DNA of 64,000 nt, taken from contig DAHUZK010000051.1 in assembly GCA_027306605.1 (NCBI GenBank), forward strand, positions 15,977 to 79,976. Direction: 5' to 3'. Made by a program: the position numbers and the translations under genes. Shown here piece after piece: positions 5,074 to 57,600 of the stretch. The stretch is from Acidimicrobiaceae bacterium (GTDB taxonomy: Bacteria; Actinomycetota; Acidimicrobiia; Acidimicrobiales; RAAP-2). The notes beneath the pieces are model-generated. The model was not told where the DNA came from and searched no databases. It worked only from the letters and a program-made list of their open reading frames with translations. Every line of letters starts with the position of its first letter. Positions within the stretch are counted from its first letter, which is position 1.

Positions 5074-6480
5074 TCAGGCCGATCCGGCACGGATCTTCTG
5101 GATCAGTTCGGTCACCTGCTCGTAGATCTGCCGACGCTCCTGCATCTGGCCGGCGATCTTGTCGACGGCGTGGATGACCGTGGTGTGGTCCCGCTTGCCG
5201 AAGACCCGGCCGATGGCCGGATAGCTGTAGTCGGTGAGGTCCCTGGTGAGGTACATGGCGACCTGACGTGCCGTCACCAGTGGCCGGGTCCGGCTTGGCC
5301 CGATGAGGGCCTCGACCGAGAACCCGTAGCTGGCCGAGACGGCCTCGAGGATGGTCTGGGGCGAGATCCGCCGGGGCTCACCGGCCCGGACCAGGTCCGA
5401 GAGGACCTCTTCGGCCTGGGTGAGGGAGATGGGCTCCTTGTTGAGCTTGGCGAAGGCGCAGATCCGGATCAGGGCCCCTTCGAGCTCTCGGATGTTGTCC
5501 TTCACGTGCGAGGCGATGAACTCGAGGACGTCGTCGGGCACCTCACGACCTTCGCTGAGGGACTTGGACCGAAGGATGGCCAGGCGGGTCTCGAGGTCCG
5601 GTGGGTCGATCTCGGTGATCAGTCCGGACAGAAAACGGCTGCGCAACCGGTCTTCGAGGGTCTCGATCGACTTGGGAGGCCGGTCCGACGTGAGCACGAT
5701 CTGCTTCGAGGCCCCTTTGAGGTCGTTGTAGGTATGGAAGAACTCCTCCTGGAGGCCCTCCTTGCGCTCCATGAACTGGACGTCGTCGATCAGGAGGACG
5801 TCGCAGTCGCGGTAGCGGCGCTTGAAGGCGAGGGTGGTCGACGTCCGGAGGGAGTCGACGAAGTCGTTCATGAACGTCTCGGTGGTGACGTAGAGCACCT
5901 TGCGCCGGGGGTAGTTCTCGGCGACGTAGTTGCCGATGGCGTGGAGCAGGTGGGTCTTGCCGAGGCCCGAGTCCCCGTAGATGAAGAGGGGGTTGTAGGA
6001 GCGCCCGGGCGTCTCGGCCACCGCCTGGGCCGCCGCATGGGCCAAGCGGTTGGAGGAGGCGGCGACGAAGGTCTCGAACGTGAACTTCGTGTCGAGTTGG
6101 ACCGCCGGGGTTTCGCGTCCTGGTCTGGTGGTCGCCGCCACCGCCGCGGGCTCGGGTGACGCGAGGGGCTGGGGATCGCTGGGAAAATCAGCACCTCCAC
6201 CTGGGATTTCGATCGAATTGTGCTCGACGTCCGCCTCCCGGACGGTCAGCCGGCCGCGCACGGGTGCGCCGGCCTCGTTGGCGAGGGTGTCTTCGATCAT
6301 CGGCAGGTAGCGCGATTCGACCCGTTCGCGGATGAGGCCGTTGGCGACGGACAGGGTGAAGACGCCGTCGTCGAAGGCCTCGGGTTCGAGGCCCGACAGC
6401 CACAGCTGCCACGTGCTCTCCGACACCTGGTCGTGCAGGGCCTTCGAGCATCTTGTCCAGAGTTCTGTCGCCTGGGTCAC
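5074..6480 (-). CDS. dnaA: Chromosomal replication initiator DnaA
   Basis: AAA+ motifs (GDSGLGKTHLL, LLIDDVQF) and a C-terminal DNA-binding domain (HTTVIHAVDKI). The start is placed at GTG 6480 (VTQATELWTRC...). The 29 extra codons up to ATG 6567 are Arg-rich with lower GC3 and contain a DnaA box, so the 6567 alternative is possible. Confidence 0.9.
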   Translation of the reverse strand: MTQATELWTRCSKALHDQVSESTWQLWLSGLEPEAFDDGVFTLSVANGLIRERVESRYLPMIEDTLANEAGAPVRGRLTVREADVEHNSIEIPGGGADFPSDPQPLASPEPAAVAATTRPGRETPAVQLDTKFTFETFVAASSNRLAHAAAQAVAETPGRSYNPLFIYGDSGLGKTHLLHAIGNYVAENYPRRKVLYVTTETFMNDFVDSLRTSTTLAFKRRYRDCDVLLIDDVQFMERKEGLQEEFFHTYNDLKGASKQIVLTSDRPPKSIETLEDRLRSRFLSGLITEIDPPDLETRLAILRSKSLSEGREVPDDVLEFIASHVKDNIRELEGALIRICAFAKLNKEPISLTQAEEVLSDLVRAGEPRRISPQTILEAVSASYGFSVEALIGPSRTRPLVTARQVAMYLTRDLTDYSYPAIGRVFGKRDHTTVIHAVDKIAGQMQERRQIYEQVTELIQKIRAGSA

Positions 6481-28577: not shown

Positions 28578-28682
28578 TTGTCCACACCACCACCGTGCCT
28601 CTGCCCGGGGTTACCCACATGGAGAGGGGCTTTTCCCACAGGCCGCGGCCGCTTTCCCACAGCAATTTCTTTCTTATGTTCC
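28578..28682 (+). promoter_or_regulatory. Phased DnaA-box cluster plus AT-rich tract upstream of dnaB
   Basis: Four same-orientation boxes: TTGTCCACA (28578-28586), TTACCCACA (28611-28619), TTTCCCACA (28632-28640) and TTTCCCACA (28653-28661). Spacings are 33, 21 and 21 bp. They are followed by gcaatttctttcttatgttcc (28662-28682). Confidence 0.6.
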
Positions 28683-28712
28683 CCAGCCCGCCGCCGTCAG
28701 AGTAGGGGCACC

Positions 28713-30104
28713 GTGGTCCAAGCCTTCGACGACACCCGACCCCAGCCGCTGCGGGCCGCCCCGCCCCCGGGCGCGGCCGGCGCGCGCATCCCCCCTCACG
28801 ACCTCGAGGCGGAGAAGTCGCTCCTCGGCGCCATGCTCCTCTCCAGCGACGCGGCGTCGGTCGGGATCGAGACCTGCGACGGGGCGGACTTCTACAAGCC
28901 GGCGCACGGGCACATCTTCTCGGCCATCCAGGCCCTGATGGAGCGGGGGGAGGCCATCGACGCCGTCACCGTCACCGACGAGCTCAAGCGCTCGGGGCTG
29001 CTCGAGCAGGTGGGTGATCCCTCGATCTTCATCTCGCTGCAGGCCAACACCCCGTCCATCGCCAACGCGCGGCACTACGCCCAGATCGTCGAGGAGCACG
29101 CGCTGTTGCGCCGGCTCATCGCGGTGGCCGGTGAGATCGCCGATATCGGCTATTCGGTGCCCGAGGACGTCAAGGCCGCCGTGGACGAGTCCGAGCAGAA
29201 GGTCTTCAACGTGGGCGAACGGCGCACGGCCGACACCATGCGCCCGCTGCACGAGCTGCTGGGGGCGGGACTCGACCGTATCGAGGAGCTGGGCCAACGC
29301 GGCTCGCACATCACCGGGGTGGCCACGGGCTACCACGAACTCGACCAGATCCTGCTCGGATTCCAGCCCTCCTCCCTCAACATCGTGGGCGCCCGTCCTG
29401 GCATGGGCAAGACCAGCTTCGCCCTCGGGGTCCTGGCCAACGTCGGGCTGCAGGTGGGACGCCCCGCCCTGCTGTTCTCCCTGGAAATGGGCCATCTCGA
29501 GCTGACCCAGCGCCTGCTGGCCTCCGAGGCCGAGGTCAACGGCCAGAGTCTGCAGACCGGGCGCATCCGCACACAGGACTGGAGCAAGATCGGCATGGCC
29601 GTCACCCGCCTCTCGAGCGCGCCGATCTTCATCGACGACAATCCCGCCGTCACGGTGATGGACATCCGGGCCCGGGCACGCCGGCTCAAGAAGTCGGAGG
29701 GTGATCTGGGGATCGTCGTCATCGACTACCTGCAACTGATGACGGGACGGGGCCGGGCGGAGAACCGCCAGACCGAGGTGGCCGAGATCAGCCGGGGGCT
29801 GAAGATCCTGGCCCGCGAGCTCGAGGTGCCCGTGGTCGCCCTCTCCCAGCTCTCCCGCAATCTCGAGTCACGGCAGGACAAGACGCCGCAGCTGTCGGAC
29901 CTGCGCGAGTCGGGCTCGCTCGAACAGGACGCCGACGTGGTCCTGTTCATCTACCGGGAGTCCGAGTACAACGACGAGGTCCCCATCGACCGGGCCGACG
30001 ACGCGCTGATCGAGGTGGCGAAGCACCGTAACGGACCGACGGGCAAGGCCAACCTGCTCTTCTTGAAGCAGTACGCGCGCTTCGAGAACCACCGCAGCGT
30101 CTGA
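28713..30104 (+). CDS. dnaB: Replicative DNA helicase DnaB (no intein)
   Basis: GTG 28713 gives VVQAFDD...PPHDLEAEKSLLGAML. Walker A GARPGMGKTSF. Ordinary 463-aa length. The track start at 28578 would translate through the DnaA boxes and gives an implausible peptide. Confidence 0.93.
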   Translation: MVQAFDDTRPQPLRAAPPPGAAGARIPPHDLEAEKSLLGAMLLSSDAASVGIETCDGADFYKPAHGHIFSAIQALMERGEAIDAVTVTDELKRSGLLEQVGDPSIFISLQANTPSIANARHYAQIVEEHALLRRLIAVAGEIADIGYSVPEDVKAAVDESEQKVFNVGERRTADTMRPLHELLGAGLDRIEELGQRGSHITGVATGYHELDQILLGFQPSSLNIVGARPGMGKTSFALGVLANVGLQVGRPALLFSLEMGHLELTQRLLASEAEVNGQSLQTGRIRTQDWSKIGMAVTRLSSAPIFIDDNPAVTVMDIRARARRLKKSEGDLGIVVIDYLQLMTGRGRAENRQTEVAEISRGLKILARELEVPVVALSQLSRNLESRQDKTPQLSDLRESGSLEQDADVVLFIYRESEYNDEVPIDRADDALIEVAKHRNGPTGKANLLFLKQYARFENHRSV

Positions 30105-30127: not shown

Positions 30128-31084
30128 CTAGGTCGCCGAGGTACCGCGGGCGGCGGGCAGGACGAAGCGGTCGACCGCACGGGCGAAGCCCTCGTCCTCG
30201 TTGCTGCTCGTCGTGTGCCGGGCCGCCCGCTTCACCTGGGGGTCGGCGTTGCCCATGGCGATGCTCAGCCCGGAATGGGCGAACATCAAGATGTCGTTGG
30301 GCATGTCACCGATGGTGGCGATCTGCACGGGGTCGAGCGCGTAGCGCGACGCCAGGTAGCGGGCGACGGAGCCCTTGTTGGCTTTCGGATGCGTGACGTC
30401 GAGGTAGTAGGGCTGTGAAGCGGCAGCGGTGACGTGGTGGCCGAAGGTGTCGGCGGCCGCCTCGGCCGCCTTCTGCACGGCGCCGTGGTCGTCGCTCACC
30501 CCGACGAGCTTGACGACGCCGTCGGTCAGCCCATCGAGGCCGTCCATCACCTTGGGCTCGAACTTGACCGTCCACGCCTCGCGGTCGACATGGGGCCCTT
30601 TGGGATCGCGCACGTACCAGTCGGCACCGCGGTAGAGCCACACGTCGAGGTCGAAAGAGCCCATCAGGTCGGCCACCGGTTGCACCACGTGCTCGGGCAG
30701 GACGTGTTGCTCGAGGGTCTCCATGGCACGGTCCACGACCAGCCCGCCGTTGAAGGCGGCGATGGAGGTCTCGAGCTCGAGCGGCTCGACCAGCATCTCC
30801 ATGCCACGGGGTGGGCGCCCGCTCGTGATGGCGAAGAGCACACCCGCGTCGTGCAGGCGCTGCACGGCGGCGACCGCCTCGTCGGTCAGGACCTTGTCCT
30901 CGGTGACCAGGGTCCCGTCCACGTCGGCCAGCAGCAGGCGGACGGGCAGGGACGGCGCCGAGGGCTCGGACGGCGCGGACGGCGCGGGAGCCGGCGGCGG
31001 AGCGGGCGGAACGCTCGAGGATCCTGAGGATTCGGGGGCGATGGGGCCGATGGTACCGGCCCGACCCGGGTATACACGGTGCAT
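30128..31084 (-). CDS. HAD-superfamily hydrolase, Cof-type phosphatase, with Pro/Ser-rich N-terminal leader
   Basis: Motif I LLLADVDGTLV, plus TSGRPP and GDMPNDILMF. The nearest canonical start upstream of motif I is ATG 31084 (alternative 31150). Confidence 0.8.
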   Translation of the reverse strand: MHRVYPGRAGTIGPIAPESSGSSSVPPAPPPAPAPSAPSEPSAPSLPVRLLLADVDGTLVTEDKVLTDEAVAAVQRLHDAGVLFAITSGRPPRGMEMLVEPLELETSIAAFNGGLVVDRAMETLEQHVLPEHVVQPVADLMGSFDLDVWLYRGADWYVRDPKGPHVDREAWTVKFEPKVMDGLDGLTDGVVKLVGVSDDHGAVQKAAEAAADTFGHHVTAAASQPYYLDVTHPKANKGSVARYLASRYALDPVQIATIGDMPNDILMFAHSGLSIAMGNADPQVKRAARHTTSSNEDEGFARAVDRFVLPAARGTSAT

Positions 31085-31493
31085 GGTCCACGACGCCCAC
31101 GAGCGGATCCCCGACAGCCACCGCGACCTCCTCGACGCCCGTTTCGCCACGCTGGCGACCGTCGGCGGGGACGGATACCCCCAGCTCTCGGAGGTGTGGT
31201 TCCTGGCCGAGGAGGATCAGGTCTGCATCTCGCTCAACCGGGCGCGGCAGAAGACCAAGAACCTCCTGGCGGAGCCCAACTGCACCGTGTTCATCCTCGA
31301 CCTGGCCAACCCGTACCGCTATCTCGAGATTCGCGGCACGGCCGACGTGACATCCGACGACGACCGGGCCTTCGCCGACCGCGTCGGCGCCAAGTACGGG
31401 GCCGATTTGCGCGACCACGATCTCCCCGGCGACACCCGGGTCGTGGTGCGCGTCGTGCCCGTGCGCGTCAACGCGGTGGACATGAGCCGCTGA
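31083..31493 (+). CDS. Pyridoxamine 5'-phosphate oxidase family (PPOX / F420-binding split-barrel) protein
   Basis: 136 aa: MVHDAHERIPDSHRDLLDARFATLATVGGDGYPQLSEVWF...FILDLANPYRYLEIRGTA. Confidence 0.75.
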   Translation: MVHDAHERIPDSHRDLLDARFATLATVGGDGYPQLSEVWFLAEEDQVCISLNRARQKTKNLLAEPNCTVFILDLANPYRYLEIRGTADVTSDDDRAFADRVGAKYGADLRDHDLPGDTRVVVRVVPVRVNAVDMSR

Positions 31494-32242
31494 GCAACGG
31501 GTGCCAGCGCGGCGGCCAACGCGGCCACCAGCACGGCCACCAGCACGGCCAGTGCCACCCAGGGCGACAGGGCGAGGCCGAGGGCCAGTGCCGATGCGGT
31601 CTCGACCGCCACCACCACCCAGAGAGCGACGGGGTCGAGAGCCGTGAAGCGGCGATGGAAGGCAGCGAGTGCGGCCGGGCTGGTGATGCGGCGCCCGAGC
31701 AGGACGGCCAGACCGCGCACCAGGCCGAAGAGGAGGCCCAGCGCGAGCGCCACCCAGGGCGACGCGGTCAGCGCGGCCAGGACGACCATCAGGTACACGG
31801 CGGCCGTCTTGATATAGGTGGCGAAGCCGCTGCCGATCTGCCAGCCGAAACCGGCGCCGTAGACCCAGGAGCGGAACTGGTCCAGCCAGCGCTCGTTGAC
31901 CTGGCGATGGTGGACCGGCAGCGTGAAGCCCCCGAGGCGCCGGTCCGACGCGGCGGCGAAGGCGCAGCCGGCGCAGGCCAACGCGGCCACCACCGCCGGC
32001 GACGGCCCGGCGGCACGGACGGCGAGGGCAGCCATGGCCAGGGCCAGGCCGAGCGTGGCCCCACCGGCGACGGCACCGGCCACGAACCACCGCGCCGTGC
32101 TGCGGTAGCGGTGGCCCCGGCCGGACTCGGCCAGCGGGGTGACCGTGGCCAGCATCGAGATGCCGCACGGCGACCACGTCGAGCGCACTGCTGCCGCCGT
32201 CGTGACGAGCGCGGCCGAGCCGACGAGAAGGGTGGTGGTCAC
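31319..32242 (-). CDS. Polytopic membrane protein (about 8 TM), last gene of the Mau-like operon; function unknown
   Basis: AAGGAG-5 nt-GTG start at 32242. Hydrophobic throughout, with motifs STWSPCGISML and ALACAGCAF. The first 205 codons of track ORF 31319..32857 are a shadow of the propeller gene. Confidence 0.65.
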   Translation of the reverse strand: MTTTLLVGSAALVTTAAAVRSTWSPCGISMLATVTPLAESGRGHRYRSTARWFVAGAVAGGATLGLALAMAALAVRAAGPSPAVVAALACAGCAFAAASDRRLGGFTLPVHHRQVNERWLDQFRSWVYGAGFGWQIGSGFATYIKTAAVYLMVVLAALTASPWVALALGLLFGLVRGLAVLLGRRITSPAALAAFHRRFTALDPVALWVVVAVETASALALGLALSPWVALAVLVAVLVAALAAALAPVAQRLMSTALTRTGTTRTTTRVSPGRSWSRKSAPYLAPTRSAKARSSSDVTSAVPRISR

Positions 32243-32276: not shown

Positions 32277-33677
32277 TCATGCGGGCGAACCGAGGAACGG
32301 GGCACCACCGAAGGCGAAGATGCCGCCGTCGGAGGCCACCATCCAGTACCCGGCGTCGTCGCGGTAGACGGCCATGCCGACGACGGGGCGGGCCAGGACG
32401 AGCGAGCCGGTCGACCCGTCGAACGCGGCGTCGCCGAAGGCGAAGATGCCGCCGTCGGAGGCCACCAGCCAGTAGCCCCGGCCGCTCGGCGTGGCCGCCA
32501 TGCCCACCACGGGCTTGTTGAGCGGCGTGCCGCCCATGGAGCCGAGAAAGGGCGCGTCGCCGAAGGCGAAGATCCCGCCGTCGGCGGCCACCATCCAGTA
32601 GCCCCGGCCGCTCGGCGTGGCCGCCATGCCCACCACGGGCTTGTTGAGTGGCGTGCCGCCCATGGAGCCGAGAAAGGGCGCGTCGCCGAAGGAGAAGAGG
32701 CCGCCGTCGGCGGCCACCATCCAGTAGCCCCCTCCCGTGGGCGTGCCGGCGATACCCACCACGGGTGCGTTGAGATGCTGTCCGCCCATCGACCCGAGGA
32801 ACGGGGCCCCGCCGTAGTCGAAGATGCCGCCGTCGGCGGCCGCCAGCCAGTAGCCACCGGTGTGGCACAGGGCCGCTCCGACCACCGGGGCGTCCAGCGG
32901 CAGGCCCGACGCGTCGCCCGCGCTGACGAAGTCGCCGTAGGGGAGCAGCTTGCCGAACGCGGTCAGCACGGCGTACCCACGGTCGTCGGCGCTGGGGAGC
33001 AGGCCGACCGACTGGCAATTGGTGGCCGGCGAGTTGCACGGGGGTGCCGGCGGCGCCGGTGTCCAGCACGGCTCGTTCTGCTCCGCCGTGGCGTTGTCGA
33101 CCGCCACCGCGGTGGTGCACGACGGGTCGACCGTCCAGGGCGGGACGCAGGCGACGACGCGGCACACGATGCGACCCAGGCACGCCACGTTCTGGTTGCA
33201 CTGCCCGTAACGGAACTGCAGGCATCCGGTCAGGAAGGAGTCACACCCTTGGGACCCGCAGCCGCAGCTGAGCCCGTCGCACTGCGTCTCGCAGAACGGG
33301 AAGCCGCTGGCGCATCCGGCGTCACAGGCACAGGTCGCGTTGCAGTCCATGTAGTAGCGGGGGCCGTTGCAGTAGGACGATCCCTCTGCCACCCACCAGC
33401 CGCCCATGATCGTGTTCTCGGGACAGTAGTTGTCGCCGCTGACGGCGCAGCAGAACTCCGAGAAGCCCGAGCAGCAGGTGCTCCCGCAGCTGCACCCCGC
33501 GTTCCCGCACTGGCAGATGGCGCCGTAGGCCGTGCCCGGCCGCAAGGCAAGATCGAGGCCGGACCCGATGGCCACGGCGCTGCCCACGAAGGCGGAGCGG
33601 TTGATGAGGCTACGGCGCGACAACCGGCCCTCCAGGGCGCGCGCCGTGCGCGTCACCAGCGCGGTGGAGAAGCTCAC
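32277..33677 (-). CDS. Tat-signal protein: 28-Cys MauA-light-chain-like module fused to a six-blade (about 42-aa repeat) beta-propeller-like domain
   Basis: Twin-arginine motif LSRRSLINRSAFVGSAVAIGSG. Cys-rich region at residues 55-221 (nt 33015-33515) includes CCAVSGDNYCPENTIMGGWWVAEG..YYMDC. Six repeats follow of GYW(M/L)VA(A/S)DGGIFAFGDAPFLGSMGG..LN.PVVGMA (nt 32280-32981). The GTG start overlaps the upstream stop (GTGA). Confidence 0.8.
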   Translation of the reverse strand: MSFSTALVTRTARALEGRLSRRSLINRSAFVGSAVAIGSGLDLALRPGTAYGAICQCGNAGCSCGSTCCSGFSEFCCAVSGDNYCPENTIMGGWWVAEGSSYCNGPRYYMDCNATCACDAGCASGFPFCETQCDGLSCGCGSQGCDSFLTGCLQFRYGQCNQNVACLGRIVCRVVACVPPWTVDPSCTTAVAVDNATAEQNEPCWTPAPPAPPCNSPATNCQSVGLLPSADDRGYAVLTAFGKLLPYGDFVSAGDASGLPLDAPVVGAALCHTGGYWLAAADGGIFDYGGAPFLGSMGGQHLNAPVVGIAGTPTGGGYWMVAADGGLFSFGDAPFLGSMGGTPLNKPVVGMAATPSGRGYWMVAADGGIFAFGDAPFLGSMGGTPLNKPVVGMAATPSGRGYWLVASDGGIFAFGDAAFDGSTGSLVLARPVVGMAVYRDDAGYWMVASDGGIFAFGGAPFLGSPA

Positions 33678-34243
33678 GACGATGCCGCCGCCTCGGTCCG
33701 GGGCCGGATCAGGCGGCGGGCGCCCTCCAGCGCGCCCAGCGCGGACAGGGCCAGGAGGCTGAGCCAGAGCGCGACGGCGCTGACGAAGACCAGCGGCACG
33801 CCGGCCCAGGGCTGGTGCGCCAGCAGCGTGAAGAGAGTGCCGTGTGCCGGTGCGGTGACGGCGACGACGGCTGCCGCCACCGCCAGGGTCAGATCCAACA
33901 GCAGGTGCACGAGGGTGGGCGGCGTGTCGGGCTTGCCGAAGCAGCCGCAGGTGGCCAGCGGGCCGCCGCGGCGCCAGGCCGAGGCGACGACGGCCGCGAA
34001 GGCTGCGTAGGAGAGCGAGACGAGGGCCGCAGTGACGGGCCGCGGCGCCACCAGGGCGGCGATGCCCAGGAGCATTTCGACCAGTGCACCGGTGCGGACG
34101 GCCGTGCGCGTGACGCGCCAGAGCCGGGCGCGACCGGCCAGCTCGGAGAGGGCGCGCGCCGTGTCGTCGGGTCGAGCGGCCTTCGCCGCGCCGGCGACGA
34201 CGAGGAGGTCCGCGGCCACCAGGTAGGGACCGATCAGTTCCAC
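33674..34243 (-). CDS. MauE/DoxX-family redox-associated membrane protein
   Basis: 189 aa from GTG 34243. Four to five TM helices and the CGCFG motif (LATCGCFGKPDTPPTLVHLLLD) characteristic of MauE-like proteins. Confidence 0.7.
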   Translation of the reverse strand: MELIGPYLVAADLLVVAGAAKAARPDDTARALSELAGRARLWRVTRTAVRTGALVEMLLGIAALVAPRPVTAALVSLSYAAFAAVVASAWRRGGPLATCGCFGKPDTPPTLVHLLLDLTLAVAAAVVAVTAPAHGTLFTLLAHQPWAGVPLVFVSAVALWLSLLALSALGALEGARRLIRPRTEAAASS

Positions 34244-34722
34244 AGCGGCCTCGCCGCCGGGAGCCCGGGTGCAGTCGCCGTCACGCCCAGGGCCGTGACG
34301 AGCTGGTTGAGGCGCGGCACCAGGACGTGGCGCATGGTGTGGCTGCCGAGGACGGCGTAGAAGGAGAAGGGACGGCCCGCCTCGGTGAAGAACCACTGCG
34401 TGCCCGACTGCCCGGGCAGGCCACGGCGCAACATGGTGGGCGAGAAGTCGGCCGCAGCGAGCGCGGCCGGCCGACCCTGGCGCGCGAAGAGCGCGGTGCC
34501 CAGGCTCTCGGGTCCGTACTCGAAGAGCGTGGCGAACACGTCGCCCGGACCCATCAGGTTCACGGCACCGCTGCCGAAGTCGCCGACCTCGTCGGGGATC
34601 GGGAATGTCGCGAACTGCGCCACCGGATAGGTGGGGCCGACCGCCGAGGGCCGGACGTAGATGCGGCCCTCGAAACCCTGCGGCAGGCGGGCCGTGATCC
34701 CGTGCGCACCGATGGTGGCCAT
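34234..34722 (-). CDS. Hypothetical protein, no signal peptide, embedded in the Mau-like operon
   Basis: ATG 34722 (MATIGAHGITARLPQGFEGRIYV...) lies 4 nt after the upstream stop. 162 aa. High-GC3 coding frame. No motif recognised. Confidence 0.55.
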   Translation of the reverse strand: MATIGAHGITARLPQGFEGRIYVRPSAVGPTYPVAQFATFPIPDEVGDFGSGAVNLMGPGDVFATLFEYGPESLGTALFARQGRPAALAAADFSPTMLRRGLPGQSGTQWFFTEAGRPFSFYAVLGSHTMRHVLVPRLNQLVTALGVTATAPGLPAARPLWN

Positions 34723-34726
34723 CGGT

Positions 34727-35575
34727 TCAGCTCCGGTGGGGGAACACGTCGTCGAGGGTGCGCGGATAGAGGCTCGGGTCGCCCGGATGGATGCCGGCGG
34801 CCCGCAGCACCTCGTCGGCCGCGGCCTCGCGCTCGGGTCCGCCCAGGGCCGGATCGTTCCGGCGGCCCCGACGGCGGTTCCGTCCGCGGTCCCCGCCGCG
34901 GCTGGCGTCCCCGCCGCGGTCGTGCTCGGCGCGCCGTACCAGATCGACCAACTGCCCGACGTGGTTCGCCACGCCTTGGCCGACCTTGGTGCCGGTGGCA
35001 CCGTCGACGAGGACGAAGAAGGGGGAGCCCGGTACCTGGTACTCGAGCCAGGCCTCGGTCGACATGACCACCGGGACCTGCCCCGTGGCGCGGGCACGTA
35101 CCTCGCTCGGGACCTCGCGGTCGGGACCCTTGGTGACGATCACGGCGCGGGTGCCGGCGGGCAGGTCGAGGCGACCGGGGTGCCCGAGCGCCTCCCAGAA
35201 GCCGGCGCAGCTGGCACAGCCCGACGAGAGAAAGGCCAGCAGCGTGAGCCCGTCGCTGTTGGTGACCGAGATGGCCCGGGCGTCGCCGGCGGGTGTCCGG
35301 CCGGCGATGGTGGGGGCGGGCCCGAGGGGCGGGGCCGGCGCGGCCGTGGGCGCCAGAGTGGTGGGCGCCAGCGTGGGGGGAGCGGCCCCGGTGGCGGTGG
35401 CGGTGGCCGCGGCGGGGGCGGGGGTGGCCGCGCCGGCCTCGAGCACCGGGTCACCGACGCCGACACCGAGCTCGTGCAGCGATCGCAGGATGTCCGCATG
35501 GCTGCGCAGGAGTCCCGCCACCAGGACTCCGAGGACCAACACCGCGAACGTCGACACCACGACGAGAGCGATCAC
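34727..35575 (-). CDS. Membrane-anchored TlpA/MauD-like thioredoxin-fold protein (CxxC = CASC) with Arg/Gly/Asp-rich tail
   Basis: AGGAG-5 nt-GTG 35575. N-terminal TM helix (VIALVVVSTFAVLVLGVLVAGLL), an Ala/Pro/Thr linker and a thioredoxin fold LLAFLSSGCASCAGFW...GSPFFVLVD. Only the last 282 aa of the 711-aa track ORF are used. Confidence 0.75.
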   Translation of the reverse strand: MIALVVVSTFAVLVLGVLVAGLLRSHADILRSLHELGVGVGDPVLEAGAATPAPAAATATATGAAPPTLAPTTLAPTAAPAPPLGPAPTIAGRTPAGDARAISVTNSDGLTLLAFLSSGCASCAGFWEALGHPGRLDLPAGTRAVIVTKGPDREVPSEVRARATGQVPVVMSTEAWLEYQVPGSPFFVLVDGATGTKVGQGVANHVGQLVDLVRRAEHDRGGDASRGGDRGRNRRRGRRNDPALGGPEREAAADEVLRAAGIHPGDPSLYPRTLDDVFPHRS

Positions 35576-35692: not shown

Positions 35693-36877
35693 GTGCAGGC
35701 TGACGACCTCCTCCTTCCCGACCCCGAGCCCCGGGAGGTGCGCTGCACCGTGATCTCGGTCGACGACCACGTCGTGGAGCCGGCCCACCTGTTCGAGGGA
35801 CGGGTGCCGGCGGCGCTGGCCGGGCGGGCGCCGAGGATCGTCGAGACCGAGCAGGGTCACCAGGTGTGGGAATTCGAAGGGGAGCGGTACACCCAGGTCG
35901 GCATGAACGCGGTGGCGGGGCGTCGCCCAGAGACCTACGGCCTCGAGCCCTTCCGCTTCGACCAGATGCGACCCGGCTGCTACGAGGTCGATGCCCGTGT
36001 CGGCGATATGGACATCAACGGGGTCTGGGCCTCGGTGAACTTCCCGTCGCAGATCACCGGCTTCTGCGGCCGCGTGTTCTTCGCCGCCGCCGACCGCGAC
36101 CTCGGACTGGCCTGCGTGCGCGCCTGGAACGACTGGCTCTTCGAGGAGTGGTACACGCCGCACCCCGATCGGATCGTCCCCCTCGGCATCACCTATCTGG
36201 CCGACCCCGCGTTGGCCGTGGCCGAGATCGAGCGCAACGCGGCGCGCGGCTTCACCTCGGTCACCTTCCCGGAGCGCCCGCACGCCATCGGCCTGCCCTC
36301 GCTGTGGGACCGGGCGCACTGGGACCCCATCATGGAAGCGGTGGTCGCGACCGACACCGTCGTCTCGCTCCACGTGGGCAGCTCGGGGCTCGAGATCGGC
36401 CCACCCGGCGGCGCGCCGCTGCAGATCGGTGCCACGCTCTTCGGCCAGCTCTCGCTGACGGCATGCGCCGAGTGGTTGTGGTCCGCGTACCCGATCCGGC
36501 ATCCCGGACTCAAGATCGCCATGAGCGAGGGCGGCATCGGCTGGGTGGCCATGCTGCTGGACCGCCTGGAGAACATGGTCGACCGTTCGGGCTACGGCAA
36601 GGGTTGGGACATGCGCCCGGCGGACGTGGTGCGGCGCAACTTCTGGTTCTGCACCCTCGACGACCCCTCGACCATCGACACGCGCCACGCCATCGGGGTC
36701 GAGAACATCATGGTCGAGGTCGACTACCCCCACGGTGACGGCACATGGCCCGATACGCAGCAGGTGATCGCCGAATGCTGGGGTCACATCCCGGCCGGCG
36801 AGCTCCGCGCCATGTGCTGCGAGAACGCCGCGGCCCTCTACCGCCACCCGCTGCCCGAGCACGTCCTTCCGGAGTGA
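35693..36877 (+). CDS. Amidohydrolase-2 (ACMSD-like metal-dependent hydrolase/decarboxylase) family protein
   Basis: ISVDDHVVEP, SVNFPS, VSLHVGSS and VEVDYPHGDGTWP motifs. The start is tentatively GTG 35693. Confidence 0.75.
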   Translation: MQADDLLLPDPEPREVRCTVISVDDHVVEPAHLFEGRVPAALAGRAPRIVETEQGHQVWEFEGERYTQVGMNAVAGRRPETYGLEPFRFDQMRPGCYEVDARVGDMDINGVWASVNFPSQITGFCGRVFFAAADRDLGLACVRAWNDWLFEEWYTPHPDRIVPLGITYLADPALAVAEIERNAARGFTSVTFPERPHAIGLPSLWDRAHWDPIMEAVVATDTVVSLHVGSSGLEIGPPGGAPLQIGATLFGQLSLTACAEWLWSAYPIRHPGLKIAMSEGGIGWVAMLLDRLENMVDRSGYGKGWDMRPADVVRRNFWFCTLDDPSTIDTRHAIGVENIMVEVDYPHGDGTWPDTQQVIAECWGHIPAGELRAMCCENAAALYRHPLPEHVLPE

Positions 36878-44830: not shown

Positions 44831-45652
44831 CTACGAGAGGGTGCGGCCGAGGTCGCGCACCGAGATGTCCCAGGCCGAAGGCCAGTCGCGCCCCCGCAGC
44901 AACGCGTCGCTGCCACCGTCGCAGAACAGCACCGAGCCGCAGAAGAACCCGGCGTCGGGGCCGATCAGGAACTCCACCAGCGCGGCGATCTCCTCGGGCC
45001 GCCCGGGTCGTCCCAGCGGGATGGGCAACATGTCGAGCATGGGCGCCGTGTCGGGATCGGCGCGCATGGCGGCGACCATCGGCGTGTCGATCATGCCCGG
45101 GGCCACCGCATTGAGCCGCAGGCCTGCCCCGGCCCAGTCGGCACCGGTGGCGTGACCGCGCACCCAGTGGGCAAGGGCCAGCTTCGAGGCCGGATAGGCG
45201 ACCAGCGCGCCACGGCTGTCGGCGATCGCTGCGGCCCGCGGCTCGTCGTGGTCCAGGCATGCCTCCACCAGATCGGCGGGGATGCCCGGCTGGACGGTGG
45301 TCGAGTTCGAGCTGAAGGCCACCGCGGCGCCACCGGGGACGAGGACGGGCCGGAGTCCTTCGAGCAGCTCCACCGAGCCGAAGTAGTTGACGGCGGTGAG
45401 GAGCGATCCGGGGCGATTCGGCAGTGCGGCCAGTCCGGCGCAGGTCACCACTGCGTCGAGCGTCCCGCCACTGCGCTCCGTGCAGGCATCGACGGCGCGC
45501 CGCCGCCCTTCGGCGGTGGCGAGGTCGGCCACCACGTCGGACTCGTCCTTGTCCACGCCCACCACCTGCCAGCCGGCGGCCGCCAGGCGCGCCGCCGTGG
45601 CGGCGCCCATGCCCGATGCGGCACCCGTGACGACGACGGTGCGCTCAGGCAG
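44831..45652 (-). CDS. Short-chain dehydrogenase/reductase (start codon unresolved)
   Basis: Rossmann motif VVVTGAASGMGAA. No ATG, GTG or TTG lies between the bcp stop and the motif; only CTG at 45652. The upstream 82 codons of the track ORF overlap bcp out of frame. Confidence 0.7.
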   Translation of the reverse strand: MPERTVVVTGAASGMGAATAARLAAAGWQVVGVDKDESDVVADLATAEGRRRAVDACTERSGGTLDAVVTCAGLAALPNRPGSLLTAVNYFGSVELLEGLRPVLVPGGAAVAFSSNSTTVQPGIPADLVEACLDHDEPRAAAIADSRGALVAYPASKLALAHWVRGHATGADWAGAGLRLNAVAPGMIDTPMVAAMRADPDTAPMLDMLPIPLGRPGRPEEIAALVEFLIGPDAGFFCGSVLFCDGGSDALLRGRDWPSAWDISVRDLGRTLS

Positions 45653-46103
45653 GGCGGCGCGCCTTGAGGAGGTCCAGCGCCTTGTCGGCGTGGCCGGCCA
45701 TGGAGATCTCGCTGCGAATGACCTCGAGCACCGTGCGATCGGTGTCGATGACGAAGGTGATGCGCCTGTTCGGGAGGAAGCTCGGTCCGCGGGCGGCGCC
45801 CAGTTGCGCCGCCACGACCCGGTCCGGGTCGGAGAGCAACGGGAGCCCGAGCGACTCCTTGTCGTCGAAGCGCTTCTGCTTCTCCACCGTGTCGGCACTG
45901 ATGCCGACCGGCTGTGCCCCCACCGCGGCGAACTCGGCCGAGAGGTCCCGGAAATGGCAGCTCTCCTTGGTGCAGCCGTAGGTCATGGCGGCCGGGTAGA
46001 AGAACAGCACGACCGGGCCCGTCCGGAGGAGCTCGCTCAGCGCGCGGGTCGTACCCGTCTGGTCCGGGAGCTCGAAATCCGGGACGACGTCGCCTTTGCG
46101 CAT
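45645..46103 (-). CDS. bcp: Peroxiredoxin (Bcp-type thiol peroxidase)
   Basis: 152 aa. FFYPAAMTYGCTKESC contains the peroxidatic Cys in a Bcp context. Confidence 0.9.
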   Translation of the reverse strand: MRKGDVVPDFELPDQTGTTRALSELLRTGPVVLFFYPAAMTYGCTKESCHFRDLSAEFAAVGAQPVGISADTVEKQKRFDDKESLGLPLLSDPDRVVAAQLGAARGPSFLPNRRITFVIDTDRTVLEVIRSEISMAGHADKALDLLKARRPA

Positions 46104-46138
46104 GCGCTCAATGTAGAGCCCCCGGAGCAGCCCCGCCC

Positions 46139-46213
46139 GGATCGCTCAGGTCCGGACGGCTCAGGTCCGGACGGCTCAGGTCCGGATCGCTCAGGTCCGG
46201 AGCCTAGGGCTCG
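46139..46213. repeat. 15-nt tandem repeat x4 plus a degenerate fifth copy (GGA(T/C)(C/G)GCTCAGGTCC) abutting the response-regulator stop
   Basis: Read directly. Copies follow an A-B-B-A pattern, and each junction creates the palindrome GTCCGGAC. Lies between the regulator stop (46204) and the bcp start (46103). Confidence 0.9.
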
Positions 46214-54685: not shown

Positions 54686-57600
54686 GTGGGTTCAGCCTCC
54701 GTGGTCGTTCCGGTCGGTCCAGTCGTTCCAGCTGTTGCAGTCGCGGTGGTGGTCGTCGTACGCGCCGCCGCCACGCCGGAGGCAGCGCCCGCCGCCGCGC
54801 CCGAGACAGGTCCGGTGCGGGCCCGGGACAGCGGGTCGGAGCCGAGGAACGCTTCACCCACCTCCGGCGAGGCCAGCACGTCGCGGGGCGGTCCGCTGGT
54901 GAGGACCGTGCCACGGTCCATGGCCACCAGCCGATCGGCCAGCTCGGCGATGAACGCGATGTCGTGCTCGACGATCAGCAAGGTGGCGTCGAGGCGGTCG
55001 CGCAGGTTGCGCAGCAACGCCACCATCGCCTCCACCTCGCGCTGGGCCACTCCCGAGGACGGCTCGTCGAGCAGGACGACCGAGGGCTGGTGCGCCACCA
55101 CCGCCGCCAGGTCCACCAGCCGCCGCGAACCGGTGGAGAGCTCGCTCACCAGGTTGTCGGCGAAGCGTGTCAGGGAGAAGAGCTCCAGCAGCTCCTCGAC
55201 GCGGTGGGTGACGGCAGCCTCGGTGCGAACCTGCACCGGCAGGCGGAGGACGGCATTGAACGGGTCGTTGACGTCGGTGAAACGTTCCAGCGAGACCGCC
55301 AGCGCCTCGCGTACCGTGAGCGAGGAGAAGAGCCTCGAGTCCTGGAAGGAACGGCCGAGGCCGAGGCGGGCCCGTGCCGATGCGCTGCGATCGGTCACGT
55401 CGAGGCCGCCCAGCCGCACCCACCCGCCGTCGGGCCGCAGGAACCCCGAGACGACGTCGAACAGCGTCGTCTTGCCCGCCCCGTTGGGGCCGATGATCCC
55501 CATGATCTCGCCGTGCTCCGCGTGCAGCGAGACGTTGTCGAGGGCGGCGATCCCGCCGAACGACACCGAGACACCGTGCACTTCCAGCGCGTACCCCTCT
55601 CCGTTGGGCCCCACCGCTCCGTTCGGCCCCACCGCTGCCGCCGCGCCGGCACCGTGTCCGGCGGCGCTCAACGTGGTCGAGGCCTTGTCGAGATAGATGG
55701 ACCACAGCAGTTCGGGGTGCGCCGCCAGCTCGTCGGCGGAGCCTGAGAAGCGGACCACCCCCGTCTCCATGACGTAGACGCGGTCCGCTACCGCCACCGC
55801 CACGTTCATCGACTGCTCGACGAGGAGGATCGCCGTCCCGGCCTGGCGCATCGACTCGATCGCTCCGAGCAGCTGCTCGACCACCAGTGGCGACAGTCCC
55901 AGGGAGAGCTCGTCGATGAGGAACAGCTTGGGCCGGGTGATGGTGGCCATGGCCAGGGCGAGCATCTGCTGCTGGCCGCCCGAGAGGTTGCCGGCACGGT
56001 CACCCCGCCGTGCCGCCAGGACCGGGAAGGCGGCCAGCGCCTCGTCGATCATGTCGGCGTCGCGCTCACCGCGCCGGCGACCCTGCCAGGCGGCGGCGCG
56101 GAGGTTGTCCTCGACCCGGAGGTTCGGGAAAATCCCTTCGCCGCCCGGCACCTGGGCGACGCCCAGACGGGCGATCTCGTCGGGCGGCAGGTGGGTGATG
56201 TCCCGGCCGTCGAAGACGATGGCGCCGTGATCGGCCTCGACGACGCCTCCGATGGCCCGCAGCAGAGTCGACTTGCCGGCACCGTTGGTCCCGACGAGGG
56301 CGACGATCTCACCCTCGCCGACCTGGATCGAGACGTCGCCGAGGACCTCGACACCGTCGTAGCCGACGTTGAGCGCGCGCACGGCCAGCAAGGGCAGACG
56401 GCCCGCGTGGCGGTCCACCAGCATCTGGGCCCTCGTCCGCATGGACGTCCACACGTCCTGCACGTCGTGCTCGATGAGGCGGCCCGCACTGGCGACGATG
56501 AGGCCGCCCACCACGAAGATCGGCACCAAGATGAGCAATCCGTAGCGGAACCCGACGGCATCGCCGAGGGCGCCGACGATGGGCAGCACCAGGAAGCCGG
56601 GCAGCACGAACAGCGCGCCGATGGAGAACCCGACGGCACGGACGCGGGCGGGAATGGCCAGGGACAAGGAGGCCAGCACGCCGGGTCCGACGATGGCGAG
56701 CGACGCGTCGATGCCGGCGTTGCCGACGAAGGCGACGGGCACCGAGGGTGCCAACGCGAAGAGCACGGCAAACCCGGCGGCGATCACGGAGGCGACTGCC
56801 AGCATGCGGAAGACGAGCCCGATGTCGCGGGCGGCGAGGCGCGTGGCGATCACGGCCCCTACGGCCAGCCCGATCAGATCGAAGACCTGGATCGGCGCGA
56901 TGAGGTAGGCGCGGTGCACGGCGTCGAGGTGGAAGGTCTCCTGGTACTGCAGCGAGGCCAGGGAGGTGAACCCGGCGATGGACGCGGCCAGGAAGGGCAG
57001 CGCGATGAAGATGCGCCGCAGGACGCCGATCTTCCAGACGGTGCGCCACGCCTCTCCGAGCGACGGTGGCGGCTCGGCCGGTACGTCGATCGGCGCGGCT
57101 GCCCCGGCCCCTGCCGACGCGGCCGCCCCGGCCCCCGTTGACGCGGTCGTCCCGGCCCCCGTTGACGCGGCCGCCCCGGCGCCGCCCGCCGGGACCGCCG
57201 TGTCCGCCAGCGGTGCCGGCTGCCCCAGCTCGGAAGCGAGCATCTGCTCGGTCAGCTCGAGCTGCTCGTGGCGGCCCCGCGCCGGTTCGCGCAGGCGGAC
57301 GCCGACGAGCACCACGAGCACGATCGGCACGGCGAAGACGAAGAAGGGGGTGCGCCACGACCCGATGGCAGCCAGGCCGGCGCCCAGGAGGACGCCGACG
57401 ATGGCGCCGAGGTTGATGCCCGAGCGGTGGGCGGAATAGATGCGCGGCCGGGCCGGGACCGGGTAGTAGTCCGCCAGCAGGGAATTGTGCGTGGGGAAGA
57501 TGACGGCCTGCCCCATGGAGACACCGGCGAGCATGATGCCGGCGACCACGACCGTGGGGGCGGCGCCGAGCCCGATGGAGAAGGCGGCACCGACGAGGGC

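Follow-up and report, generated by a model that had tools for sequence, protein, structure and literature searches.

What is made by a gene that joins a twin-arginine leader, a domain crowded with cysteines and a run of tandem repeats is the question raised by positions 32277..33677, on the minus strand, of a 64,000-nt stretch of Acidimicrobiaceae bacterium DNA (GenBank assembly GCA_027306605.1, contig DAHUZK010000051.1), to which we refer as the window. An earlier note had seen in the product a possible single-chain analogue of methylamine dehydrogenase (MADH), in which a module resembling the light chain MauA would be fused to a propeller resembling the heavy chain. MauF, MauE and MauD are the proteins that mature the MADH light chain, and we found homologues of all three beside this gene, hereafter the target. 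We put at roughly 0.6 the probability that the target protein is an exported, probably cell-surface, disulfide-knotted client of a private oxidative-folding cassette built around these MauF, MauE and MauD homologues.

The target open reading frame (ORF) reads as coding because its G+C content reaches 0.93 at third codon positions (GC3), compared with 0.62 and 0.60 at the first and second, in a window with a G+C content of 72%. The target and its parts are as follows:

32277..33677 (-), the target ORF, 466 aa, an exported protein consisting of a Cys domain and a propeller
33540..33677 (-), residues 1–46, a conserved N-terminal helix and twin-arginine signal (LSRRSLINRSAF...)
33057..33539 (-), residues 47–207, the Cys-rich domain with 26 Cys, covered by alignment A3 and an AlphaFold2 (AF2) model
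32982..33056 (-), residues 208–232, a Pro-rich linker (PAPPAPP) with Cys 214 and 221
32280..32981 (-), residues 233–466, a predicted beta-propeller of six blades, built from six 42-aa repeats

The N-terminus, MSFSTALVTRTARALEGRLSRRSLINRSAFVGSAVAIGSGLDLALRPGTAYGA, displays a twin-arginine motif, then a hydrophobic segment and a site of the AxA type, and the leader (...LEGRLSRRSLINRSAFVGSAVAIGSG...PGTAYG/A) matches the twin-arginine translocation (Tat) consensus S-R-R-x-[FL]-[LI] with an AxA-like site. R21 and R22 are conserved in at least 90% of 93 diverse relatives, and AF2 predicted helices at residues 3–18 and 21–31 of the leader, with low predicted local distance difference test (pLDDT) values. 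Residues 55–221 hold exactly 28 Cys, with a single further Cys at 271, and six repeat units opening with GY[WA] begin at residues 234, 275, 317, 359, 401 and 443, where Tandem Repeats Finder reported a period of 126 nt over 4.4 copies with 83% matches. The earlier note had therefore described the architecture correctly in its twin-arginine signal, its 28 Cys within about 170 residues and its six tandem repeats of about 42 aa. Mean identity was 0.75 in the Cys domain and 0.69 in the propeller, and lowest, at 0.58, in the linker.

The target lies within a set of five minus-strand genes that abut or overlap each other, transcribed in the order MauD-like thioredoxin, unk165, MauE, target and MauF-like protein. 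Its four companions are:

34727..35575 (-), a MauD-like thioredoxin-fold protein with an N-terminal transmembrane helix and a CxxC (CASC) site in "FLSSGCASCAGFW"
34234..34722 (-), unk165, a conserved protein of 162 aa without a signal peptide
33674..34243 (-), MauE, a DsbB-like membrane disulfide generator with a CGCFG motif ("ATCGCFGKPD")
31319..32242 (-), a MauF homologue, a polytopic membrane protein with the motifs STWSPCGxS and RQVNERWLDxFRxWVYGxGFGxQIGxGxATY

The MauE protein matched Pfam PF07291 with an E-value of 6.9e-16 (59 bits, cut-off 27), it carries the CXC followed by F-G that forms the MauE active site (10.64898/2026.03.05.709764), and the mauE stop codon overlaps the target start codon (GTGA, 33674..33677). 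The MauD-like protein, whose start codon was set by comparison with orthologues, aligned with MauD of Paracoccus denitrificans (BLASTP E 2e-8) and reached the NCBIfam MauD model TIGR02661 at E 1.4e-3, under the family cut-off; we presume it to be a disulfide carrier. A MauE encoded together with a CASC thioredoxin-fold partner is the combination that marks a MauE-dependent folding client, and it is present here. The MauF-like protein was 30% identical to P. denitrificans MauF over 168 aa (BLASTP E 4e-6), a tblastn search with that MauF found its counterpart in the orthologous locus L001 (E 3e-9), and comparison of the MauF-like profile with MauF by hhalign gave a probability of 98.2% (E 4.8e-14, 160 columns), with STWSPCGxS and RQV...WV.G..(F/Y)G...G...TY common to both. 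P. denitrificans MauF itself belongs to no Pfam family, which accounts for the lack of library matches to this gene. As for unk165, we found no match in Pfam, NCBIfam or the PDB and no similarity to any P. denitrificans Mau protein, and presume it to be a cytoplasmic accessory factor.

A scan of species-representative genomes returned 587 loci with relatives, and we tallied gene order and content on the best 80 of the 587, all of them in Acidimicrobiales or Acidimicrobiaceae metagenome-assembled genomes from soil and peat. The order trx-unk165-mauE-cys-mauF, on one strand, was observed in 75 of the 80 loci, the remaining five being cut by contig ends. Where 8 kb was complete on either side (65 loci, the full-flank set), all five cassette genes were present in every locus, and MauG, MauB, amicyanin, MauJ and MauA matches were found in none within those flanks. 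In every locus examined mauE lay directly upstream of the Cys-domain gene, and the flanking genes varied from genome to genome, from which we concluded that the cassette is the unit. Divergent members (a 190-aa stand-alone protein, P0213, and the 295-aa P0176) still had MauE directly upstream, and retained the thioredoxin and unk165 in a different gene order; unk165 was present in the divergent loci L013 and L015, with a MauF-like gene in L013 and none detected in L015. We propose that the MauF homologue and unk165 are obligatory partners of the client. Four public gene calls (P0013, P0107, P0110 and P0185) present MauE and the Cys-rich protein as one product of 518–661 aa, and these are probably frameshift or gene-calling artefacts, not real fusions.

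The cysteines themselves vary as partners would. In 165 complete relatives the domain contained between 16 and 28 Cys, an even number in 156 (95%), with 16 Cys present in at least 92% of sequences and 15 of those in at least 96%. The quartet at positions 55, 57, 64 and 69 co-occurred with r = 0.89–0.98, and this N-terminal CxCx4CxC quartet was missing in 44% of relatives; pairs 129–133 (r = 0.93), the alternative 136–151 (r = 0.89) and 118–122 (r = 0.74) likewise co-occurred. Because disulfide partners predict both parity and paired turnover, and metal ligands predict neither, this pattern points to disulfides and not to metal clusters, contradicting the suggestion in the earlier note that the Cys runs might bind metal as in metallothioneins. 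The domain would be held by eight universal disulfide pairs, with up to six lineage-specific pairs in addition.

In the mechanism that we propose, the twin-arginine leader would target the precursor for export, and unk165, having no signal peptide, could act on it beforehand. Outside the membrane, MauE would generate disulfides at its CGCFG site in the manner of DsbB, as has been shown for homologues in a preprint (10.64898/2026.03.05.709764), and would pass them to the membrane-anchored MauD-like thioredoxin, whose CASC site would oxidise and shuffle the 28 Cys, installing up to 14 disulfides; the propeller would keep the mature protein at the cell surface. In the same preprint MauE homologues replaced DsbB in E. 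coli and are described as generalists, only about 10% of MauE-bearing species also had MauA, and MauD is regarded as a DsbA-like carrier (10.64898/2026.03.05.709764). Homologues of mauE and mauD have also been reported beside Cys-rich precursors in candidate Streptomyces clusters for RiPPs, peptides that ribosomes make and that are modified after translation (PMC7794033).

AF2 modelled residues 47–210, from the 80-sequence alignment A3, with a mean pLDDT of 89.7 and a predicted template modelling score (pTM) of 0.84. The core of this model is a long beta-hairpin with strands at 89–100 (IMGGWWVAEGSS) and 105–115 (GPRYYMDCNAT), there is a third strand at 167–176 (LGRIVCRVVA), and the rest is disulfide-stapled coil. 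Foldseek, which is weak for small, coil-rich disulfide domains, returned no match to the model at E ≤ 0.001 in the PDB (best E 1.9) or BFVD, and no light chain of MADH or aromatic amine dehydrogenase (AADH) among its top 50 matches. Judged by this model, the domain of about 160 aa would have a fold unlike any solved structure. Its invariant non-Cys residues are G81, N83, P86, G93, W94, W95, R107, D111, F155, R156, Y157, G158, R173 and T197, of which W94, W95, D111, Y157 and T197 stay invariant down to relatives about 42% identical to the window domain. The placing of W94, W95, R107, Y108, D111 and R173 on the predicted central three-stranded sheet, together with the invariant FRYGQ loop, suggests a specific binding or catalytic site and not mere scaffold.

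For the C-terminal part, AF2 on the full-length protein arranged residues 220–466 as six three-stranded groups, 18 strands in all, at a pLDDT of about 90, and Foldseek of this model returned 1448 PDB matches at E ≤ 0.001, headed by WD40-type propellers (E about 3e-9, probability 1.00). The repeats matched no Pfam repeat family; that they fold as a propeller, as had been proposed from the sequence, is nonetheless what the model predicts. No MADH heavy chain appeared among the 50 Foldseek matches listed, and the blades number six, not seven. Within the repeat array, repeats 3 and 4 (residues 317–400, 32478..32729 (-)) share 95% identity at the protein level and 97% at the DNA level, compared with 45–81% DNA identity for the other pairs, which suggests that a unit was duplicated, or that gene conversion took place, within the target gene in the recent past.

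An exhaustive profile search with the Cys domain gathered 475 clusters (at 50% identity) at E ≤ 1e-3, and 188 at E ≤ 1e-30, in proteins of 145–742 aa that nearly always carry the domain directly after the leader. Stand-alone forms of 190–223 aa exist (P0213, 190 aa; P0195, 223 aa), and the C-terminal partners identified in 93 diverse members were LGFP (28), FG-GAP_3 (5), CWB2 (4), SLH (4) and DUF4214 (3), with ricin, tectonin, fn3, Hyd_WA or DUF346 modules in single members. LGFP, SLH and CWB2 serve to anchor surface proteins of Gram-positive bacteria to the wall; the ricin and tectonin modules are lectins. The repeat of the window propeller was also found behind other N-terminal domains (P0085 and P0108). 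Since stand-alone relatives lack the propeller and others carry substitute modules, it is most likely an interchangeable surface-anchoring or ligand-binding unit and not an obligatory partner of the Cys domain.

Source names of the members were "hypothetical", "twin-arginine translocation signal domain-containing", "VCBS repeat-containing" or "DUF4214 domain-containing". The family has cultured carriers, among them Nakamurella alba and Acidimicrobiaceae bacterium USS-CC1, and most relatives come from uncultured soil and peat Acidimicrobiales; one (P0160), labelled "Nitrososphaerales archaeon" at source and 62% identical to the window domain, sits on a 2.2-kb contig and is most likely a mis-binned actinobacterial contig. 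In Pfam (2025 copy) and NCBIfam (2026) the target had only spurious sub-threshold matches (RNR_Alpha and F420H2_quin_red), a hidden Markov model (HMM) of the family matched nothing in the PDB at E ≤ 10, MauA and AauA included, and a six-frame scan of the window with the HMM found no second family member. A phmmer match to a PDB glucokinase (E 0.006, at a zinc site "CGCGSQGC") was set aside as low-complexity chance, and literature searches for the Cys domain or its architecture found no description.

Does the Cys domain descend from MauA? The P. denitrificans MauA sequence on which the resemblance was first proposed agreed exactly with PDB entry 2bbk_L. The light-chain family PF02975 matched neither the window protein (at E ≤ 1) nor any of the 93 diverse relatives (at E ≤ 0.001), whereas the same library detected the divergent light chain of Thermomicrobium roseum with 36 bits, and NCBIfam, phmmer and HMM-versus-PDB tests likewise found no relationship to MauA. 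The mature domains were also compared profile to profile by hhalign. With 10 MauA sequences the probability was 12.7% (P 0.0023, score 24.5, 16 columns), a score reached by 1 of 200 shuffles; with 16 PF02975-type sequences from plasmids and metagenomes, the divergent T. roseum type included, it was 47.6% (P 1.9e-4, score 30.4, 17 columns), and none of 400 composition-preserving column shuffles reached the score (null mean 13.5, maximum 28.1). The matched columns in both comparisons were G-x-N-x-C-P-x-G-T-x4-W-W in the Cys domain and G-S-x-x-x-C-P-P-G-T-x6-W(57) in MauA. This is the very segment that the earlier note had picked out (CPENTIMGGWW... and CPPGTKLATASW...), and the only stretch that hhalign pairs between the families; W94 or W95 is paired with Trp57 in a register ambiguous by one residue. 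A relaxed, low-confidence alignment continues colinearly through Y-x-D-C, which places D111 opposite the catalytic Asp76 of MauA, and then through (Y/F)R-x4-N-x3-C, with Trp108 facing a non-Trp residue (A, G or D) before C166.

Including the leaders raised the hhalign probability to 97% (E 5e-11, 135 colinear columns). The target leader alone gave 94.6% against MauA leaders, however, and generic Tat leaders score alike: eleven unrelated Tat leaders scored 11–24, compared with 22 for the MauA leader. We therefore discounted the full-precursor score as evidence of homology, as it reflects mostly generic Tat-leader similarity. When the MauA-like protein of T. roseum was used to look for bridging sequences, 9 close relatives were all that came back. 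The CPxGT...W motif nevertheless appears to be real and non-random, and to lie on an equivalent predicted hairpin. Of the proposed MauA-like reading, then, a link to the light-chain system is supported by the helper genes and by a motif similarity around Trp57 that outscored all 400 shuffles, and membership of the light-chain family is not supported, as neither PF02975 nor Foldseek recognised it. Because the motif and the helper genes point the same way, we put at about even odds the idea that the Cys domain is a very distant, much elaborated relative of the light chain that lacks the machinery for tryptophan tryptophylquinone (TTQ).

The alternative that survives best, though we consider it unlikely, is that the Cys domain is unrelated to MauA, that the CPxGT..W match reflects convergence or chance, and that a portable MauF/MauE/MauD disulfide module was recruited to some other client, for which a glycan-binding, adhesin or toxin-like domain would be a candidate. 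The uniformly negative Foldseek, Pfam and PDB HMM searches favour it, as do the modest hhalign probabilities for mature domains (12.7–47.6%), the wall-binding or lectin modules among the fusion partners, and aromatic invariants (W, W, Y, Y, F, Y) such as are found in carbohydrate-binding sites. The candidate Streptomyces RiPP clusters, in which homologues of mauE and mauD accompany Cys-rich precursors, would also be consistent with recruitment of this kind (PMC7794033). Against this, the motif score exceeded every column shuffle with the larger alignment and 199 of 200 with the smaller one, the further Y-x-D-C and (Y/F)R-x4-N-x3-C pairs are colinear, and the predicted hairpin bears Trp and Asp as the alignment places them. 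Moreover, to our knowledge MauF, MauE and MauD have otherwise been reported all together only in mau and aau clusters.

Several points weigh against our preferred reading, that of a disulfide-knotted surface client of the cassette. The transfer of disulfides from MauE and MauD to the client is deduced solely from gene linkage, and a Tat leader on a client that needs extracytoplasmic disulfides is unexplained. The anchoring role of the propeller would follow solely from domain substitution in relatives. In the full-length AF2 run, made with a shallow orthologue alignment, the Cys domain was left unmodelled at a pLDDT of 30–40, so that this domain and the propeller may share a tight interface. 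Finally, no more than about 17 columns align confidently with MauA, the 97% full-precursor score is inflated by the leader, and Foldseek and Pfam see no relationship.

More doubtful than recruitment of an unrelated client is that the Cys domain is a quinoprotein of the light-chain type, in which W94/W95 would be converted to a Trp-derived quinone (similar to TTQ, or similar to cysteine tryptophylquinone (CTQ) with a neighbouring Cys or another residue) and the propeller would serve as heavy chain of a single-chain amine dehydrogenase or oxidase. What speaks for this is the presence of MauF, MauE and MauD helpers within the operon, the alignment of W94/W95 with TTQ Trp57 and, in its extended form, of D111 with Asp76, and the invariance of W94, W95, D111, Y157 and T197 to about 42% identity; unk165 might also be a novel maturation factor, and the first hydroxylation of MauA Trp57 is independent of MauG. 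Yet MauG, cytochrome c, amicyanin and MauB were absent from the window and from all 65 full-flank loci, tblastn with P. denitrificans MauG gave no match in the window, L001 or L002, and the coding-like ORFs of the window are free of CxxCH motifs. Neither the cassette nor the Pfam-annotated neighbourhoods L001 and L002 showed a flavoprotein of the LodB/QhpG type or a radical S-adenosylmethionine gene. The earlier note had itself remarked that the second TTQ Trp and mauG are missing, and both observations are now extended to the family, with A, G or D at the Trp108-aligned position and MauG in none of the 65 loci; W181, the sole other candidate Trp, is not universal, being absent in P0213 and P0172. 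PF02975 detects T. roseum light chains (36 bits) and not the Cys-domain family, and no light chain of MADH or AADH matched the fold of the model. The propeller, absent or swapped for wall-binding modules in most relatives, cannot for that reason be an obligatory catalytic partner, and with an interchangeable propeller the idea of a single-chain MADH formed through the fused propeller is not supported. Slightly less probable still is a variant in which the domain, as a diverged MauA relative, makes a new W94/W95-based cofactor without MauG, perhaps by means of unk165. If such a W94/W95 cofactor were real, the family would be a class of quinoproteins anchored to the wall and widespread among soil Actinomycetota.

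Least credible of all is that the cysteines bind metal, as metallothionein-like thiolate clusters or as Fe-S clusters inserted in the cytoplasm ahead of Tat export: the CxC, CC and CxxxC runs in the N-terminal third would suit it, and proteins that take up a cofactor before they are exported typically have Tat leaders, but Tat is also widely used by Actinomycetota for proteins without cofactors, the target has no ferredoxin-type CxxCxxCxxxCP motif, AF2 gave a compact fold without metal and with invariant W, Y and F residues, the CxCx4CxC quartet is missing in 44% of relatives, and Cys parity (even counts in 95%) and pairwise gain and loss, with the co-transcribed MauE and thioredoxin-fold partner, led us to reject it.

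Should the client reading be correct, the target would be a natural case of the whole MauF/MauE/MauD trio serving a client other than a light chain, of which our literature searches found none described. The proposed MauE disulfide pathway would gain a defined substrate that makes extreme demands on it, as many as 14 disulfides falling within about 170 residues, and MauF, a protein of obscure role since the 1990s, would gain a second genetic context for study. The search results also define a large unannotated domain family (the 475 clusters above) with a predicted fold absent from the PDB. If the weak similarity to MauA reflects common descent, the family would show a possible ancestral or descendant form of the TTQ light chain.

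Near the cassette, motifs in ORF translations suggested a DnaB-type replicative helicase (28578..30104 (+)), a HAD/Cof-like hydrolase (30128..31150 (-)) and an amidohydrolase-2 family protein (about 35700..36877 (+)), none of which keeps its adjacency to the cassette in other genomes. Elsewhere in the window, a second thioredoxin-like stretch at 45792..46094 (-), in ORF 45645..46145, matched P. denitrificans MauD weakly (tblastn E 0.006) at a position unrelated to the cassette. A second "MauE-like" tblastn match at 56704..57015 (-) (E 0.004) falls within long hydrophobic transporter-like ORFs and was rejected as probable composition noise. The ABC/permease region at 54.7–59.9 kb has an unusually high AT skew, 0.23–0.35 at 56–60 kb.

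Of the known systems, the closest comparison is with the light chains of MADH and AADH (MauA/AauA, PF02975), encoded in clusters of the type mauFBEDACJG(L)MN. The target shares with them a long twin-arginine leader with an N-terminal helix and a domain predicted to be small, disulfide-dense and exported, and with the mau cluster the mauE, mauD-like and mauF homologues in its operon. It also shares with MauA the G-x-x-x-C-P-x-G-T-x(4-6)-W motif, Y-x-D-C in the extended, low-confidence alignment, and a Trp and Asp on a predicted hairpin. Where the light chain has 12 Cys and 125 aa, however, it has 26–28 Cys and about 160 aa; it lacks a PF02975 match, a Trp108 counterpart and a fold recognised by Foldseek, its loci lack MauG, MauB, MauJ and amicyanin, and its domain is fused to variable C-terminal modules in Actinomycetota and not in Pseudomonadota.

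A second point of reference is the T. roseum plasmid NC_011961.1, which also lies outside Pseudomonadota and carries two MauA-like genes (780–1232 and 6001–6282), of which the annotated one was confirmed as PF02975 (36 bits) and the other carries no annotation. These genes adjoin a redoxin-like gene and one for a 596-aa protein with a C-terminal MauE domain, and no Pfam match to MauG or MauB was found among the neighbours scanned; the plasmid may harbour a separate, non-canonical light-chain system. Its MauA-type gene resembles the target cassette in its motif variant "GGAWW" and in the adjacent MauE and redoxin-like gene, but its proteins, unlike the target, are recognisable PF02975 members of 150 aa that keep the second Trp (NWC) and have no C-terminal module.

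The recently described MauE pathway likewise places a CXC-F-G MauE beside a thioredoxin-fold protein in regions without mauA, as in the window; the window MauE differs in being translationally coupled to a single Cys-rich client and not a generalist, and the cassette adds MauF, on which that preprint is silent, and a fourth conserved protein (10.64898/2026.03.05.709764). The Streptomyces clusters found by decRiPPter resemble the target in that a mauE of actinobacterial origin, sometimes with mauD, adjoins a secreted Cys-rich product in a context other than methylamine metabolism, but their products are short peptides with at least 8 Cys, whereas the target is a folded domain of about 160 aa, with 16–28 Cys across the family, a Tat leader and large C-terminal modules (PMC7794033). 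A disulfide-dense MauF/MauE/MauD client with a Tat leader is already known in the MADH light chain, and what is new at this locus is a larger and different domain, free of the TTQ machinery and coupled to modular surface-binding partners.

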